Positions 46,181 to 54,832 of a stretch of DNA of 64,000 nt are shown here, in pieces. Position 1 is the first letter of the stretch, and each line of letters opens with the position of its first letter. The position numbers and the translations under genes were made by a program. The DNA is from an uncultured delta proteobacterium (GTDB taxonomy: Bacteria; Desulfobacterota; Zymogenia; Zymogenales; Zymogenaceae): NCBI GenBank assembly GCA_963735595.1, contig CAVTLK010000001.1:416001-480000 (forward strand), given 5' to 3'. Below the pieces are notes generated by a model. That model worked only from the letters and a program-made list of their open reading frames with translations. It did no database searches and was not told the DNA's origin.

Positions 46181-48494
46181 ATGACGAGCGCACAACCGCA
46201 GCGACACGCCTATATATCGGCCGTTACGCTGGGCGGCATATCCATAGCCGGCCAGATTGTGCTCATGCGGGAGATCATGATCCTCTTCTACGGCAATGAG
46301 CTGTCGGCCGGCGTCTGTCTCTTTTCATGGCTCCTCTGGACTTCGGCGGGGGCCTTCATAGGCACCGCTCTCACTAAACGTAACATCACCGGTCCAAGAG
46401 CCCTCCCCGCCCTGCTTGCGGCCGTTGCCGTGCTGCTTCCGGCAACCGTCGTCCTCTGCGCGTGTCGCAAAGACGATCGTCGGAATATCCCAGAGTGAGA
46501 TCATCGGCATCGTCCCGATGGCGGCTATTGCCGCGGTCGTCCTTTTGCCCTTCTGTTTCTTCTCTGGTCTGCTCTTCCCCCTGCTCATACGGACAGCCGT
46601 CCCCGACAGCCGGAACGACCGTGATGCCCCTGCCCGCATATACCTGTTCGAGTCCATCGGCTCATCACTCTTCGGAGTCATTACCGCCCTTGTCCTCATC
46701 CGGCATTTTGACGCCCTGACGGTCGCGTTTTTTGTCGCCGCCATTGCCGGCCTGGCGGCACTGTACATCTCGGTTTCCACCCGCCGCCCCGCGGCGGCCG
46801 TACTATCGGTCCTCGTCGTCTCTCTTTTCGTCCTTCAGCCCCTGTTTTCTATTCCCGACATCGCCGCGATCACCCGGCAGCTCCAGTGGAAGGGCTTCAC
46901 GGTGGTCGAATCGACCGATTCCGTTTACGGAAACCTCACCGTGACGCGGGCCGAAAGCCAGACCACTGTGTATGACAGCGGGGTACTTTCGTTTACCTAC
47001 CCGGACGTCATGAACAGCGAGCTCGGCGTGATCTATCCCCTCCTCCTTCACCCCCGGCCCGTGAGGGTGCTCCTTGTGGGCGGCGGGATATCCTCGACAC
47101 TCTCACAGATACTCAAGCACCCCTCGATTTCGGCAATCGATTACGTGGAGCTTGACCCCGCCCTCATCGACCTCGGTGTAAGAAACCTCCCCTCCGAGGC
47201 GACCCGCCCGCTGTCGGACCGCCGGGTTCGGGTCATCCACGAGGATGGACGTCTCTTCATAAGGGAGGCCCGTGATCGGTACGACGTAATCATCGTCAAC
47301 ATGGCCGACCCCGTCAACGCGCGCATAAACCGCTACTTTACGCGGGAATTCTTCCGCGAGGCGAAACGGATCCTTGCCCCCGGCGGCGTCTTCTCTATCT
47401 CGGTAGGCTCATCGGAGGAGATTATCAGCCCGGTGCTCGCCTCCTTCCTCGGGAGCGTCTCCCGGACGCTGTCGTCGGACTTTTCCCATACGGCGGTCGT
47501 GCCCGGGGGCACCGCGTTCTTCGTGGCGTCCGACCTCCCGTCCCGGGTGGACATCGACCCCGCGGTACTCGCCGCCCGTATGAAGGATCGCGATATCGTA
47601 AACAGCTACGTCACCGAGCAGTATCTCCTTTATCAGCTGAGCGACGAGCGGATTGAGTACGTTCGCCGAAGTATTGAAGGCGCGAAAACGGCGGGGAACA
47701 ACACGGACCTCACTCCCACGGTCTACTACTACAATATGGTGCTCAGGAGCTACTGGCTCTCACCCGGGCTGAAGATCGCCCTTGCCGACTTCGCCGGATC
47801 ACGGCCGGTCCTACCGATCACGGCGATTATCCTGGCGGCGGTCGTCTGCGGCGCTCTTATCAGAATCCGCGCCCGGAAACCGGCCTCGCTACCGGCGGCA
47901 ACCGTCGTTCCCGCGGCGTTGACCTCCGGCTTTTCCGAGATCGCGATTACCGTCGTTATCATCATCGCGTTCCAGACCTTCCGCGGCTACGTCTATTCGG
48001 GCCTCGGCCTGATCATCTCATCGTTCATGATCGGCCTTGCCATAGGAACCGGGGCCGCCCGCTCCCGGATAGGCATATTCGCCCGCCCCTGGCGGCTCCT
48101 TGGTATCGTCCAGTTGCTCTACGGCGCGTTGTGCCTGTCGATTGTCGGCGTCCTCTTCTTCTTTTCGACGTACGGATCGGGGGGATGGCCCTGGGGACCT
48201 GCCGCCGTCTTTTCACTGCTGAACATGCTCTGCGGGATACTCGCCGGTTTTCACTACGTTACCGCGGTGCGATCTCTTGTCGTCTCGGGCCTTACGGCCG
48301 ACGCGGGGGGGTGGGTCTACGGGATGAACCTTGCGGGCGCGGCGGGAGGGGCAATTCTCGCCTCGGTGGTCATGATACCGCTGTGGGGATTGGTCACGAC
48401 CCTGCTGCTGGTGCTGGCGGCAAACCTGTGCGCTGCGGCGGTTGTCGGAATCGGGGCAGGATATATCGGCGAGAATAACACACGGCGCAGATAG
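46181..48494 (+). CDS. polytopic membrane protein with central spermidine-synthase-like SAM-binding domain (frameshift near 46470)
   Basis: QIVLMRE...FYGNEL, YLFESIGS, SVYGNL, VLLVGGG, VELDP, EDGRLFI, YFTREFF, LAPGG. TM bundles at both ends. Confidence 0.82.
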
Positions 48495-48531: not shown

Positions 48532-49757
48532 TCAGACGCCCTTCGGCGCCTCCCATATCCCCGCGATCGGGTATCCGCAAAACGAGCACTTCCCTTTCTT
48601 GATCTTTACCTCTCCCACGAAGTACCCCATACGAAAGATTAGCGTCTTCCCGCACGTGGGGCAGTAGGTGGACTCGTATTTATGGCCCGGGACGTTGCCG
48701 ACGTAGACGTATTCGAGGCCGGCCTTTCGGGCGGCGGTATGCGCGGCTTCAAGCGTCTCTACCGGCGTGCTCGGGAGGTTGGTGAGCCGATACATCGGGG
48801 TGAACCGGGAAAAATGGAGCGGCGTCTCTTTGCCGACCTTATCCCTGATCCACTCGCACATCCTGGTGATCGTCGGGAGGTCGTCGTTCCTGGTGGGAAC
48901 GATCAGCGTCGTGATCTCCACGTGGACGCCCGCCTTCTTGTATCCCGCGATCGAGTCGAGCACCGGTTTAAGCCTGCCATCGGTCATCGATGAGTAATAG
49001 TCCTCGGTAAACCCCTTGAGGTCGATGTTGGCCGCCGTCAGGTATTTGGAAAGCTCGGCCCGCGGCCCGGGGTTGATATACCCGTTTGAATGCATGACGT
49101 TGATCAAGCCCGGCCTTCTTGACGGCCCTGGCGCAGTCCAGCATGTATTCGTAGAAAATCGTCGGCTCCACGTAGGTGTAGGCGACGCTCGCGGATCTCG
49201 ATGATTCGTGCCTCCCGTGCCAGCGCCGCCGGGCTAAGCCGGTAATTATCGGTGTTTTCCGGCCGGGCCTGGGAGATGTCGTAGTTCTGGCAGAATTTGC
49301 AGGTGAGGTTGCAGCCGGCGGTGGCGATGGAATATGACGTCGTTCCGGGAAGGCAGTGAAAGAACGGCTTTTTCTCTATGGGGTCGACGTGGATCGCGCA
49401 GGGGTTGCCCCATACGAGGCTGTAGTATTTCCCCTTCCTGTTCTCCCTGACCTCGCAGTATCCCCGTTTGCCGTCGGCCACCGTGCATCCCCGGGGACAC
49501 AGGAGGCACATTACCGTTCCATCGCCCAGCGGGGTATACAAGGGGGACTCCTTCGGTACCATGTAACCCCGTTCGGGATACCCCATTTCGTCGCTGCCGT
49601 CGGACGTTCCGATCGGCTCGGCACAGGCGGAAAGCGGCAGGCCCGCGGCGCAATACCCCAGGGCGCACGCGGATGCCCCCGTCAGGAATTCCCGCCGGGA
49701 AAGCCCCCCCGCATTTCTACCGACTACTTTTCTCTTACCCTCACCTGCCCCGTCCAC
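48532..49757 (-). CDS. amrS: AmmeMemoRadiSam system radical SAM enzyme with Tat signal (frameshifts near 49200 and 49105)
   Basis: CLLCPRGC, VDPIEKKPFFH, GCNLTCKFCQN, NIDLKGF, LHFSRFTP, YVYVGNVPG, CPTC...CSFC. N-terminal SRREFL. Confidence 0.9.
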
Positions 49758-49760
49758 AGT

Positions 49761-50307
49761 CTATTCCTCCGAGAAAGCCTCCGTCGTGAAGATATAGAGT
49801 TGGGCGTCCTGCTCTTTCCAGTCGTTCGGAAGGAGACGGGCCTTCACGCAGAGATTTTCGAGGTACTCGTTGAGCGTCCACCCCTGCTGGACTGGAACCT
49901 CCGGAAGGAAGAGGCCCGAGTTGCCTCCCTTTCCGAATTACTACCCCGTGCGTCCCGACGATGATCTCGTCGACGCTCTTTATCGGTTTTAGCTCCGATA
50001 GTACCGAGACTTCGATAGTGATATCTTTGAGCTCCGCTTTCGTCACCGGGTTGTCAGAGAATCGATAGTCGTAGACTGCCCCGAGGGCACCAAGCGATAC
50101 CGTTTCGTACAGGGGATAGACCGGCTCGATATAGCCGACGCAACCTCGCAGCTCTCCATCGTTGGTGAGGGTAACGAAAGCGCCGCCGGGCCTTCGTAAG
50201 GGCGGCCGAATCGCTCTGTGAAATCGGGAACGCACTTTTCCCGACAGCTCGCACTCGATGGTCTTCCTCGCAATCGAGAGGAGTTCCTTCCTGTCGTTCG
50301 TCGTCAA
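49761..50307 (-). CDS. amrA: AmmeMemoRadiSam system protein A (AMMECR1), possibly fused to AmrB, frameshifted
   Basis: GAFVTL...LRGCVGY, IEVSVLS, GTHG. After a shift GLFLPEVPVQQGW...LCVKA...FSEE* (TAG 49761). Confidence 0.88.
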
Positions 50308-51266
50308 TCCCTCCCGGCCTCGTCCCCTTCTCCCGCCGGCGGCCCTCCCCTCCCGTAGACGACCGCCGAGATGTATCCGACGACGGCATCGGTTGTCCCG
50401 GTCTCTGTCCCGCTGTCGTCATACATTGTCACAAGGACCCCCGAGGAGCCGAGAGCACTTGCCGCGAGGAGCGCCGTCACCACCGGCCCCGCCCCGCAGG
50501 CCTCGGTCTTTCGGCCGACGACGGCGTCGTACAGCCCCTCTGCGATCGTTCTTCTCGAGGAATTTCCTGAATACGCCGTCAAGCGAGCGCGCTTCCGTGC
50601 GTGAATGGTAGTGCGACAGGTCCGACGAGGCGACGATCAGGACGCGTTTATCGCCGATCGACGCCGCGATCGCCCGCGCCAGGTCCTCGCACGAGGCGAG
50701 GCTGCAGCTGCCCATGACAATGGGGACAATCTCAAAATCACCGAGAACGACCTGAAGGAACGGGACTTCGACTTCCACCGAATGCTCCGGGAGGTGGGGA
50801 AGCCCGTTTTTAGTGATGCGATCGCCCTTCTTTACGATCGAATCGATCAGGTCGGTATCAGGGCGATACGTCGCCCAGAGGCGTACGGTACGGACCGTCG
50901 GCGTATATGGCCGAGCCGTCAAACGAATAGTGATGGCTTGGACCGATAATGATGACGGTGTCGTAGGAGGTCCCGGCCAGCGCCTTGAAACCGGCGGCTG
51001 CCGTCTGGCCGGAATAGATATACCCTGCGTGGGGAGCAATGACCGCGAGCGGCCGTCCCGGCACCCTGATTGCCGGCGCTTCGGCGAGAAAACCCGTGAT
51101 CATTGCCCGAAGGTCGTTCGGATCGCCGGGATAAAAGGAACCGGCCACCGCGGGGGCCCGGGCCCGACGTCGGACCGGATAGCTCTTCACCCGACAGGCA
51201 CGCGGGGGTAATAAAAATGAGTATCAAGAACAGGGTTAGCCGGATCGCCTTCGAGTTTCGACCCAT
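50304..51266 (-). CDS. amrB: AmmeMemoRadiSam system protein B (Memo1-like) with putative N-terminal signal, frameshifted
   Basis: VAGSFYP, APHAGYIYSG, IGPSHH, EHSVEVEVPFLQ, SSDLSHY, ACGAGP, VVGY spread over four ORFs. Confidence 0.88.
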
Positions 51267-51293: not shown

Positions 51294-51512
51294 TCAATGA
51301 CAGCTGCCGCAGTTTTTCGACGTACATCCCCCGCAGCCGTCCCCCGACGACGCGGAGATAAACTTCTCGCCGCTCTTGACCGCACAGACCGACATTTCTT
51401 GTTAACCTGCTGTGGAGGCGCACTTAGGGCAGGAAATCTCGGCACTCCTGGACATTACCAGCTCCTCGAACTCGTTGCCGCATCCCCCGCAGACAAATTC
51501 AAATATCGGCAT
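51294..51512 (-). CDS. FmdB-family zinc-ribbon protein (not in ORF track, frameshifted)
   Basis: Manual translation gives MPIFEFVCGGCGNEFEELV...CPKCAS.../...MSVCAVKSGEKFISASSGDGCGGCTSKNCGSCH*. Confidence 0.8.
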
Positions 51513-51515
51513 ATG

Positions 51516-52099
51516 CTACCTCATCGACCCAGGAGCCGTCGCCCCGTTGAATCCACCAGCCTGCGCGCGCCTGATTCTGCCAGCTGTCGGCAAAGAGGCG
51601 TTCGATCTGCGGTATGGTATCGCCGCCGAGGCCGTTAGCCGACGCGATCTCCTGATAGAGGCGCCTGCGGTCGGCGTTGTCGGCGTCTACCAGTCCCCGA
51701 AGGCTGCCCGATCGCGCCGATATCCAGCCCCCCCTGGTTCCTGATCTCCAGGTACCCACGGTTGGATATCCCGATATTGCCGCCGTTATAGAAGGGCATG
51801 AGCTGCGGGAACCGTCCCTCCATGGTGGAACGAATCGCCCGTATAGCCGGCGTTGAGATATTGATATCGACCTGCGCCCATGCGCTGTCCACCAGCAGGC
51901 CGGCAAGCCTGAACGGAACGGCCAGGCGCCCCTCGGGCTTCGTGTCCGTGGCCGGCTCCGCTCCCTTCTTGTAGACGTCGTCGACGATCTCATCGGCCGC
52001 CTTCCGCACCGCTTCGGCGGGGAAATATATATTAACCGTGACGCATGCCCCGACGAGCAGCATTATCGTCAAGAGCGCGGGAATTACTTTTCTCATCAT
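51516..52099 (-). CDS. YdbL (DUF1318) family lipoprotein with YnbE-like N-terminus, frameshifted
   Basis: Lipobox VGAC followed by VTVNIYFPAEAVRKAADEIV, then NADRRRLYQEIASAN...ARAGWWIQ. Confidence 0.8.
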
Positions 52100-52195
52100 G
52101 GTCAATTCCTCCTGTGGCTCCTCTGTGGCTTTCCTTGGCTCCAGTTTGTTCCTCATAGGACCCGGATTGGCTCATGGTCGGTTCCTTATTCGGAC

Positions 52196-54832
52196 CTACC
52201 TGGTTTCAATCCTGATATCTTCGGTATCCTTTACGTTTATCCGCTCCAGCCGCCGCATCATATCGTCAAAACGGATCAGGTTGTTGGGGTTCTGATTGAT
52301 TACGTTGATGCCGGTAAGGCCGCTGCGCTTGATGAAATACTCGGTGTCGCCTTCGTGAATCATGCCCCTGAGCGTAAAATAGTCGTTCTTGAGCTCGAGG
52401 TGAATGCCGATCCCCGAATAGTTATACTCGTGGACGAATCGGTTAAGGCCCGTGCGGAGCAGCGCCCGAAAACAGGGTCGATCCCGATCCGAGGATCGTC
52501 AGCTTATCGACGAATTCGACGCTGACGCGCTTATCCACTCCCCGTCTATCGACCGTCCTGACATCTAATACAAATCGTCTCCGGCCCCCCGTAGGAGAAA
52601 ATAAGACCGGAGATTCCGCCTTCGGCGATCCCGGTGACCCTGCCCACGTCGATCGTTTGGGTCAGCGCTCCAAGGTCGATATCGGCAAACGTCACGTCAC
52701 ACCCGAGCCTTCGCCCCGCATCAAAGATATCCTGACCCCATATGTTTTCGATGCGTACCGCTCCATTAAATATTTTAGCAGTAAGGGTGCCCGAAGTAAA
52801 CAGCTTTTTTTCCTCGATCCTGACCTCCGCGAGCTCGCCGATGAGCTCCCCCTTCAGAGCGACAAGCTTTTCCTTCGGGAAGATCGCCGCGATATTGATT
52901 CCTTTCACGGCCAGCGACAGGCGCATCGTTCTGTTTTCGTCGAATATGTTTTCCCCCGAGCTCCACCGATCGTTACGGAGCCGCCGGCTGCCGAAACCAC
53001 AACGGTATCCTTCAGGGCAAAGGCGTTTTTCGTAAGCGCCGGTGATAACGTCACCGCACCGATATCGACCCCGCCCAGCATCGCGTGGGAAACGGTTACC
53101 TCTCCGAAGTCACCGGGGATAAGCTCCGGCGTTGCGTCTTTATTCGACCCGTCTGAAAGGTCGAAGGAAAACGGCATAGAAGCCGAAATCCCCTCGACCT
53201 TCGTGGAAATACCGGGGAAATCAAGGGTAGCGCCGACGATATCCAGTCTGCCCGAGACACGCGGCGCCGCAAGGTTTCCCCCTATCCTGCCCGATGAATT
53301 CAGAGAACCGGCGACGGCGCCCGTATAAAGCCAGGCGATGCGGTTCATGAAGTAGTTTCGAAAGAGGATGTCGTAGGCCGCTGCCATGTCGCGGACCTTC
53401 ATGCGGTACGAGAGATCCCCGCTCATACCGGCCCGCCCGGAATCGATATCTCCGAAAATATCCGCCGAGAGGACCGAGGGTATCGATACCTCGCCCGTAA
53501 AGTTCTTGACGCCCCCGTCGTCTTTCAGCCGGCCCGATGCCTTGAGGGAGATCCGGTGCTTTTCGAAATTGACGAAGAGGCCCGAGAGGAGGAGCCCGAA
53601 ATCATGGGCGGTGAGCTCGCCGTTAAAAAAGAATCCCTCCCTGATATCGTCCCTGAACTGAATCCGCGCCGACCCGGTAATACCCTGACCCAGGTAGCCG
53701 GAATCGGGAGACGAAAATCCGGCATTGACGAGATCGACCTCGAGATTGCCGGCAATGCTCCTGTCACCCGCATCGACAGTCCCCATCGTCAGGAGGCTTT
53801 TCGCCCGCCCCGTGATCCCCCAACCGGCAAGGAATTCGGGCATATAGTCCCCGAGGCGGCGGAGGTTCGCAGACGAGAGCATCAGCGAATCCGCCTCCGA
53901 CGTAACCTTCCATTCCCCGTTCTTCTCGACCGCTAAGATTCAGCAATACGTCCCCGAAACCGGGGCACCGAGAGCGCCGCGTCTCTCAGTATAAAGGCGC
54001 CGTCGTTTTCTTTCTCCATCTCGCCCGTGGCCGTGATCCCGTCCAGCATAAGGCCGCGCCCCTCCGCGGCAATCGAGAGGCCGTCGATCGAGATGTCCGT
54101 CGCTTCGACGGTATCACGGTTAAACCGTATGTGCGCCGTAACGTGTTTGCCCGCGAATAGAAAATCTCCGATCCGATACCCCGACTCTCCCATCCTGACC
54201 GCCCCCCGGGCCGAAACGTCCGGATAGGTTCCCGCAACACGCATCCGGCCGTAAAACGGCCCGTCGAGCATCGAGCCCTCGTTTATCCCTTCCGTCCGCG
54301 CCGATCCGGCAATCGTGAGGGACTCGCCCACGATGCCGTGTTCATAGCTCATATCCACGCCCTGGAAGATGTAGCGCCCTGACGTGTCGATCAGGACAAG
54401 CTCGCCGTTTTCGACGGTGATATCCAGCTCCATAATCCTCTGGATGAGACGATCCCCGTCGCCTCCACCTTCCCGTGACACATCCAGAGATATCGAGGGA
54501 TTATGAACGGTGATTTTTTTTATTCTCAGGGGAGTGGTCAGGCCGAGGCCGAACTCCAGTACCGCCGGGCCGGATGAAAAGACGACCGGGCCGGTCACCA
54601 GGTCCATCCCTTCCACGATTACCGCGCCGGGAGAGACCAGCCGTATCCCGGTTAGATACACCCGGTAGCCGACGGTTCGTTCGACGACACGCCCGACCGC
54701 ATCGCCGATCAGTTCGTCTCCGAAATAGTAGTAGAAGACCGATATCGCCGTTAGCGACCCGAAGAAAACGGTCAGGCAGCAGATCCAGATGATCCGGGCG
54801 AGGCGGGTCTTTTTCCATAGCCTCTTGGACAT
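52196..54832 (-). CDS. YdbH/AsmA-like intermembrane (lipid-bridge) protein, multiple frameshifts
   Basis: N-terminal TM anchor, long beta-rich body, IDLGALTQTIDVGRVTG, C-terminal EYNYSGIGIHLELKNDYFTLRG...INVINQNPNNLIRFDDMMRRLERI. Adjacent to ydbL. Confidence 0.7.

Follow-up and report, generated by a model that had tools for sequence, protein, structure and literature searches.

AmrS, the radical SAM enzyme of the AmmeMemoRadiSam system, begins with a leader of the twin-arginine (Tat) type in a 64,000-nucleotide stretch of DNA from an uncultured delta proteobacterium, referred to here as the window. Relatives exchange this leader for another export route or move it to a separate small gene, and the chemistry of the enzyme therefore probably takes place outside the cytoplasm. 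Judging from sequence, we consider it likely that AmrS is exported and resides in the periplasm, and nearly as likely that the gene belongs, as its radical SAM enzyme, to an exported branch of the system. Extracytoplasmic radical SAM chemistry, proposed in an earlier sequence-only reading of this DNA, appears to be the best reading because it is favored by conservation, phylogeny, gene neighbors, and the association of leader type with TatC alike.

To our knowledge, radical SAM enzymes are regarded as cytoplasmic, and we know of no periplasmic SAM pool. A periplasmic radical SAM enzyme, if real, would imply that SAM is exported, that electrons have a path outward, and that the substrate belongs to the envelope. 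The Memo-AMMECR1-radical SAM family has human disease relatives and no known reaction; an exported AmrS would point to membranes and the periplasm as the place of its product. What this analysis adds is the tracking of the translocase by leader type in raw counts and the placement of a putative Tat signal on a separate small gene.

Table 1. Positions of amrS, its leader and partner genes in the window, and of related features at loci of relatives
Feature	Position	Strand	Remarks
amrS, AmmeMemoRadiSam radical SAM enzyme (TIGR04337)	48532..49757	minus	three TIGR04337 pieces; relatives have about 407 aa
Tat-type leader of amrS: n-region, SRREFL, h-region, ACA/E or possible LSAC lipobox	49617..49757	minus	from sequence; conserved in homologs
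GGAGG ribosome-binding site	49766..49770	minus	within end of amrA, 8 nt upstream of GTG
amrB-amrA (Memo-AMMECR1) fusion, Sec-type N-terminal signal	49761..51266	minus	six frame pieces here, one ORF of about 500 aa in relatives
MFS-fold membrane protein, 14 helices, inserted spermidine-synthase-like SAM-binding domain	46181..48494	plus	convergent with amrS, downstream
Separate small Tat-like genes behind leaderless amrS	L198:4783-4920, L203:6006-6164, L209:6050-6196 and similar		
Genes that precede leaderless amrS and encode FMN_bind/Fer4_5 membrane proteins or small anchor peptides	L193:5974-7527, L197:1556-3290, L205:6013-7606, L198:5976-6116, L209:4827-5027		
AmrS with CxxCH insert	L087, L090, L092, L265, L266, L275, L293, L294, L297, L301, L303, L305-L307, L322		between first strand and first Cys (hairpin loop)

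The leader and start of amrS

The open reading frame that carries the leader spans 49104-49757 on the minus strand (217 aa) and starts with the GTG at 49757, 3 nt behind the end of the amrA stop codon. This start and its GGAGG Shine-Dalgarno sequence, called in the sequence-only reading, hold up: in two relatives the matching start position is an ATG just behind the amrA stop. The earlier reading had also placed an SRREFL motif, an h-region, and ACA/E in frame with the Cys motifs, and this is confirmed. SRREFL forms residues 20 to 25 (49700-49683; SRREFLT in the window), and the h-region comprises residues 26 to 42 (17 residues) with a modest mean Kyte-Doolittle value of 1.16. LSAC lies at residues 42 to 45 and ACA/E at residues 44 to 47; the N-terminal Cys motif begins at residue 84 and CxxxCxxC at residue 149. 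The leader helix in a structure model of the G002 ortholog comprises residues 19 to 35.

Two other explanations of the motif were rejected. Under a rule combining an SRREFL-type motif with a hydrophobic stretch, a match within the first 70 residues occurs in 7 of 3076 stop-to-stop ORFs of the genome, compared with 0 of 2323 when the same rule is applied to residues 150 to 220 as a control, which argues against a chance motif. Translation from an internal start at the Met before GYP (MGYPERGY), which the sequence-only reading had named as one finding that would undo its proposal, is not borne out by the 13 closest homologs listed: 11 have Ile at the position, one has Val, and one has Met.

Profile matches to the leader are weak. 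The window leader has no match to Pfam TAT_signal, the G001 ortholog narrowly exceeds the TIGR01409 cut-off (16.9 bits versus 16.7), and PF10518 (Pfam TAT_signal) matches 20 of 129 aligned AmrS members with E values up to 0.1, all in Tat-type rows.

An A-x-A before the cut recurs among homologs. The sequence-only reading gave signal peptidase I cleavage alone; LSAC may also act as a lipobox, and AmrS of the source genus is a possible lipoprotein. As a clade-wide form the lipoprotein is unsupported: a lipobox occurs in 8 of the 86 RR-bearing homologs, and the Cys is not conserved. Many leaders among P0001-P0120 contain one or two Cys within the h-region.

Leader-bearing AmrS proteins in one clade

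Conservation of the RRxFL motif among AmrS homologs, a check proposed with the sequence-only reading, was observed: the leaders of 118 of 120 listed homologs, otherwise divergent, carry RR or KR with F and hydrophobic residues, a figure that is biased because the query contained the leader. A strict RRxF plus hydrophobic residue is found in 76 of 119 parsed homologs among the matches listed. The 86 RR-bearing homologs follow the Tat consensus, with S/T in 82, F in 77, L in 77, and K in 60.

We also scanned with the core alone, taking one genome per species. The best 80 of 599 loci, from many phyla, comprise 53 Tat-type, 11 Sec-type, and 16 leaderless proteins, with leader classes assigned by regular expressions, hydropathy rules, and inspection rather than by SignalP, and with L083 and L127 reclassified by eye. 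In a tree of the leader-free core (131 rows), one branch with support 99 holds all 75 Tat and 12 Sec rows; in a larger FastTree tree (210 rows), a split with support 99 separates 42 cytoplasmic-type rows from 168 others. Both trees are rooted at their midpoints, and the direction of leader change is not readable from them. By these core sequences, leader-bearing AmrS proteins form one clade, apart from the leaderless cytoplasmic AmrS.

Leader type and TatC

We searched for TatC in the genomes of the 80 core-scan loci and in 151 from the phylum to which G045 belongs (Omnitrophota); 75 of the 151 have it. From the 102 AmrS-matching genomes of this phylum, 80 loci were taken, namely, the top-scoring ones plus two lower ones picked for a nearby tatC. 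Pooling left 144 exported-clade rows once rows of the cytoplasmic type, a single broken row, and loci not covered by the TatC search had been excluded. In this set, 57 of 62 Tat-leader loci come from genomes with a TatC match, as do all 15 leaderless clade members and 12 of 67 Sec-leader loci, and a DsbD_2 gene adjoins 49 of the 67 Sec-leader loci versus 0 of the 77 others. The exceptions (5 Tat-leader loci in genomes in which no TatC was found and 12 Sec-leader loci with TatC) come from a sample of incomplete genomes.

Correction for the tree on starred branches leaves 6 independent pairs for the TatC link, with a mean of 4.2 in the expected direction, 0.0 in the opposite direction, and a median P of 0.125; for the DsbD_2 link, which has fewer pairs, a mean of 2.0 point the same way (P = 0.5). 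Neither link is significant after this correction. Leader type tracks the translocase in raw counts, which kin inflate. In six genomes (G144, G156, G166, G184, G216, and G239), amrS lies within about 12 kb of tatC.

Sec-leader AmrS proteins lacking the twin arginine occur at L059-L061, L064, L065, L073, L083, L084, L101, L129, L133, and 55 loci among L183-L260, mostly in genomes in which no TatC was found and usually with a DsbD_2 gene alongside. Sec exports unfolded chains, and Sec-type leaders on an Fe-S enzyme are therefore hard to explain. They hint at Fe-S assembly outside the cytoplasm and raise the question of whether Fe-S clusters are built there.

A candidate Tat signal on a separate gene

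Leaderless amrS genes of the exported clade are often directly followed by a small ORF of 45 to 75 aa with an RRxF-type motif and a hydrophobic stretch. Under one rule applied to loci from L057 on, such a gene is present at 29 of the 55 leaderless loci with room for it, a set that includes cytoplasmic-type genes, versus 1 of 175 leader-bearing loci. It is present at 23 of the 28 leaderless loci whose AmrS lacks its own first strand, and the pattern was found in two collections, including 80 metagenome loci. Recognition by existing profiles is weak: among 11 separate peptides, NF038009 matches 5, far below its cut-off, and TIGR01409 matches 2, and one peptide searched in the ESM Atlas retrieved only hypothetical or Tat-signal clusters.

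One subtype of the peptide ends in EA(R/M)(Y/F)(Y/W), a segment absent from its AmrS; another subtype ends differently. Where leader and enzyme are fused, this segment forms the first of the two strands of the N-terminal hairpin, which span residues 72-76 and 79-82 in the G002 ortholog model. We infer that the separate peptide binds the leaderless AmrS. On their upstream side, several leaderless amrS genes have a gene for a short anchor peptide or for a membrane protein of the FMN/Fe-S type; several of these products end in the same strand segment and may dock AmrS.

Tat hitchhiking, in which the signal sits on one partner of a two-subunit redox enzyme, has been described, as has an AmiA assay; in the part of that report covered here, a radical SAM gene is mentioned only as a neighbor (10.1101/2023.11.02.564894). 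Leaderless AmrS and its separate Tat peptide would work alike, with the difference that the carrier is a peptide of 45 to 75 aa, one subtype of which repeats the first AmrS β-strand.

Two side observations concern these loci. At three related loci (L200:11645-12625, L203, and L204), the small Tat peptide gene overlaps at its stop with a gene for a polyprenyl synthetase, possibly by chance. Upstream of position 2932 of L311, what looks by eye like a TatC C terminus lies directly 5' of a leaderless amrS.

A CxxCH insert was found in 15 of 298 AmrS rows, some of them duplicated; 14 stand behind a Tat leader. Heme c attachment takes place outside the cytoplasm, and the insert would fit such attachment there; a zinc site is also possible.

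Partners of AmrS at the locus

The amrB-amrA fusion adjoins amrS upstream, so that AmrA and AmrB co-occur with AmrS, and it retains the catalytic motifs of both Memo and AMMECR1. A hydrophobic Sec-type leader is present on 62 of 64 AmrB(-A) ORFs scored; the exceptions are a stand-alone AmrB and a truncated ORF. In five genomes of the same genus or family, the layout of the locus is intact and RRxFL is kept.

The convergent MFS-fold gene is the only match of the genome to the fused MFS/spermidine synthase family NF037959 (57.8 bits versus a cut-off of 40). Averaged over 76 homologs, its product has 14 helices, and its K+R content per loop alternates between about 21 inside and about 5 outside, from which residues 225 to 543, the SAM-binding domain, are predicted to face outside. 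A model of this protein (pLDDT 93.7) matches MFS transporters and spermidine synthases, with Z scores of 29.4 for VMAT2 (rmsd 3.5, 349 residues aligned) and 27.9 for SotB. It shares the spermidine synthase fold with polyamine aminopropyltransferases and differs from them in the predicted outside location of the domain and in the replacement of the GGG(E/D)G acidic residue and the DxxDP Asp: Asp occurs at position 373 in 3 of 76 homologs and an acidic residue at 303-304 in none. These acidic residues, which serve decarboxylated SAM and the amine, are replaced, and polyamine synthesis is therefore unlikely; we rejected the neighbor as a true spermidine synthase. Among the best 80 of 599 loci, the MFS/SAM-domain gene is close to amrS at 33 of 53 Tat loci, 6 of 11 Sec loci, and 1 of 16 loci without a leader.

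Elsewhere, the genome encodes TatC (E = 3.7e-77), with a TatA/B-like gene upstream of tatC by inspection. It also has two leaderless AmrS paralogs and a separate AmrB; exported and cytoplasmic forms therefore appear to coexist. No electron-donor gene linked to amrS was found in the source genome or in G001-G006; the DUF362, Fer4_5, FMN_bind, and DsbD_2 genes of the source genome are on other contigs only. In relatives, a DUF362 gene lies near 14 of 53 Tat-amrS loci (best 80 of 599 loci).

At L131:6737-7747, L075:5780-7845, and L079, the genes next to Tat-amrS encode DUF362 proteins, several of which have Tat motifs, and DUF6599 proteins. At L009:587-1489, L015:2899-3801, and L017:536-1438, Tat-amrS stands beside another radical SAM gene, a more distant one that itself carries an RRxF leader.

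The leader might not take AmrS across the membrane at all: as an uncleaved anchor or chaperone-binding remnant, it could leave the enzyme on the cytoplasmic face, as in NarG, whose twin-arginine peptide is vestigial. SAM and reductant are cytoplasmic, the window leader is modestly hydrophobic and lacks a Pfam match, and an anchor role would make the Sec-type leaders less puzzling. We nevertheless consider this improbable, given that the basic n-region ahead of the helix predicts a C terminus outside, that A-x-A sites recur, and that Tat-type leaders, like the separate Tat peptides, are nearly confined to genomes with TatC. The CxxCH inserts of homologs, the cytoplasmic paralogs in the same genome, the Sec signal on AmrB-AmrA, and the predicted outward orientation of the neighboring SAM domain also speak for export.

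Catalytic core and known relatives

All 11 family-invariant Cys, which are conserved in 103 exported-type and 26 cytoplasmic-type AmrS rows, are present across the pieces of the window gene, as are CxxxCxxC and the N- and C-terminal Cys modules. We found no AmrS structure among the sequences of solved structures. The nearest solved relative by both sequence (E = 2.6e-13) and fold is pyruvate formate lyase (PFL) activating enzyme (PDB 3cb8 and 3c8f), with the fold taken from the G002 ortholog model (pLDDT 93.6). It shares 18 to 19% identity with AmrS and lacks both 4-Cys modules and an export signal; where databases call AmrS homologs "pyruvate formate lyase activating enzyme" or the like, the label has been transferred.

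These features bear on whether AmrS, once exported, performs radical chemistry outside or serves there as an Fe-S or SAM-binding subunit for redox or sensing. Supply of SAM and reductant is deduced indirectly, and the neighbor lacks the aminopropyltransferase acidic residues, so that noncatalytic SAM binding would exist in the system. Against such a role, CxxxCxxC and the core show the same degree of conservation as their cytoplasmic counterparts, Foldseek pairs the model with PFL-activase (E = 1.7e-13, rmsd 2.3), and the exported partner keeps its Memo and AMMECR1 motifs; we give this alternative, like the anchor, a low probability.

The canonical AmmeMemoRadiSam system (TIGR04337 AmrS, TIGR04336 Memo-like AmrB, and TIGR04335 AMMECR1-like AmrA) has the same three components and the same 11 Cys. 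It differs in having no leader; in the present form, each of the two proteins has an export signal, and the locus includes a gene for a membrane MFS/SAM-binding protein. No established function of the canonical or the exported form was found in the literature covered. Work by Burroughs et al. from 2019 reportedly links Memo contexts to nucleotide-base and isoprenoid modification and may mention secreted versions. In the titles and text passages covered, no exported or periplasmic radical SAM enzyme was found.

The association of Memo, AMMECR1, and radical SAM genes and the AmrB-AmrA fusion have been described, and RNA base modification was predicted for the system; in the portion of the main text covered, the term "signal peptide" is absent (PMC2034487). 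An exported AmrS would argue against this prediction for the present branch. Another article, as far as covered, only cites "Memo-Ammecr1 systems" (PMC7159879). The HXS antiphage system likewise links a radical SAM enzyme to periplasmic function; according to the part of the report covered, that enzyme lacks a signal peptide, and the proposal there is that it acts in the cytoplasm on a substrate that is exported later (PMC13128918).

A proposed route for AmrS and its chemistry

We propose that AmrS would be loaded in the cytoplasm with a [4Fe-4S] cluster and two 4-Cys metal sites, cross the membrane folded through Tat, and then be cut at ACA/E or lipid anchored at Cys45. In the periplasm it would work with AmrB-AmrA. 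Tentatively, and at slightly less than even odds, the MFS protein would supply SAM across the membrane and hold it outside, possibly exchanging spent products; alternatively, its outer domain might be a methyltransferase acting on the same substrate. Electrons have about an even chance of coming from outward-facing membrane redox proteins of FMN/Fe-S (NosR-like), DUF362/Fer4_5, or DsbD_2 types. The likeliest substrate, though somewhat short of an even chance, would be an envelope component, for example one linked to a lipid or an isoprenoid, or else a small molecule that passes through the MFS protein. A partner protein activated as in PFL-activase chemistry is a distinctly weaker candidate, and RNA is an unlikely substrate for the exported enzyme.

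The fullest scheme, which we hold to be rather doubtful as a whole, is a widespread periplasmic radical SAM pathway fed by a SAM-exporting MFS protein. The enzyme would leave the cytoplasm by a fused Tat signal, as in the window; by a Tat signal in trans, on a small peptide that completes the first β-hairpin and is possibly then exchanged for a membrane anchor or electron donor with the same strand; or, in lineages without Tat, by a Sec signal, which would require Fe-S assembly outside, helped by the DsbD_2 protein.

State of the locus in this assembly

The TIGR04337 profile splits into three pieces over the window amrS. Scored separately, pieces reach 117 and 194 bits, each below the cut-off of 220 because of frame breaks, compared with 356 bits for the intact G001 ortholog. 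DNA alignment with G003 places two single-base insertions near 49209 and 49106; both extra bases, and four more in amrB-amrA, are absent from the short-read contigs of relatives. The remaining differences between amrS and G003 are mostly protein preserving. Comparison of 189 genes between the assembly and G001 gave 78 frame changes and 47 broken genes. Frame breaks cluster at 460000-530000 of contig C1 of the source assembly (G000), and split ORFs there are therefore not to be taken as biology. The two amrS breaks are probably assembly errors. They were overlooked in the sequence-only reading, which also left out the family context, the proposed exported branch of the AmmeMemoRadiSam system.

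Least probable is that the operon is a decaying pseudogene cluster in the source organism, or is translated from behind the leader: although its frame changes (2 in amrS, 5 in amrB-amrA, and 1 near the 5' end of the MFS-fold membrane gene) are denser than the average of 0.35 per kb, and a search of sequencing runs for reads of the source organism found none, RNA included, the following 70 kb contains unrelated genes that are broken likewise, each break examined consists of one extra base absent from relatives, the other differences from G003 mostly preserve protein, the internal Met is not conserved, and decay would touch only the source-organism copy and not the clade.

Upstream of the operon, on the minus strand at 51499-54832 of the window, lie genes for a DUF1318 protein and a large, frameshifted membrane-anchored protein.
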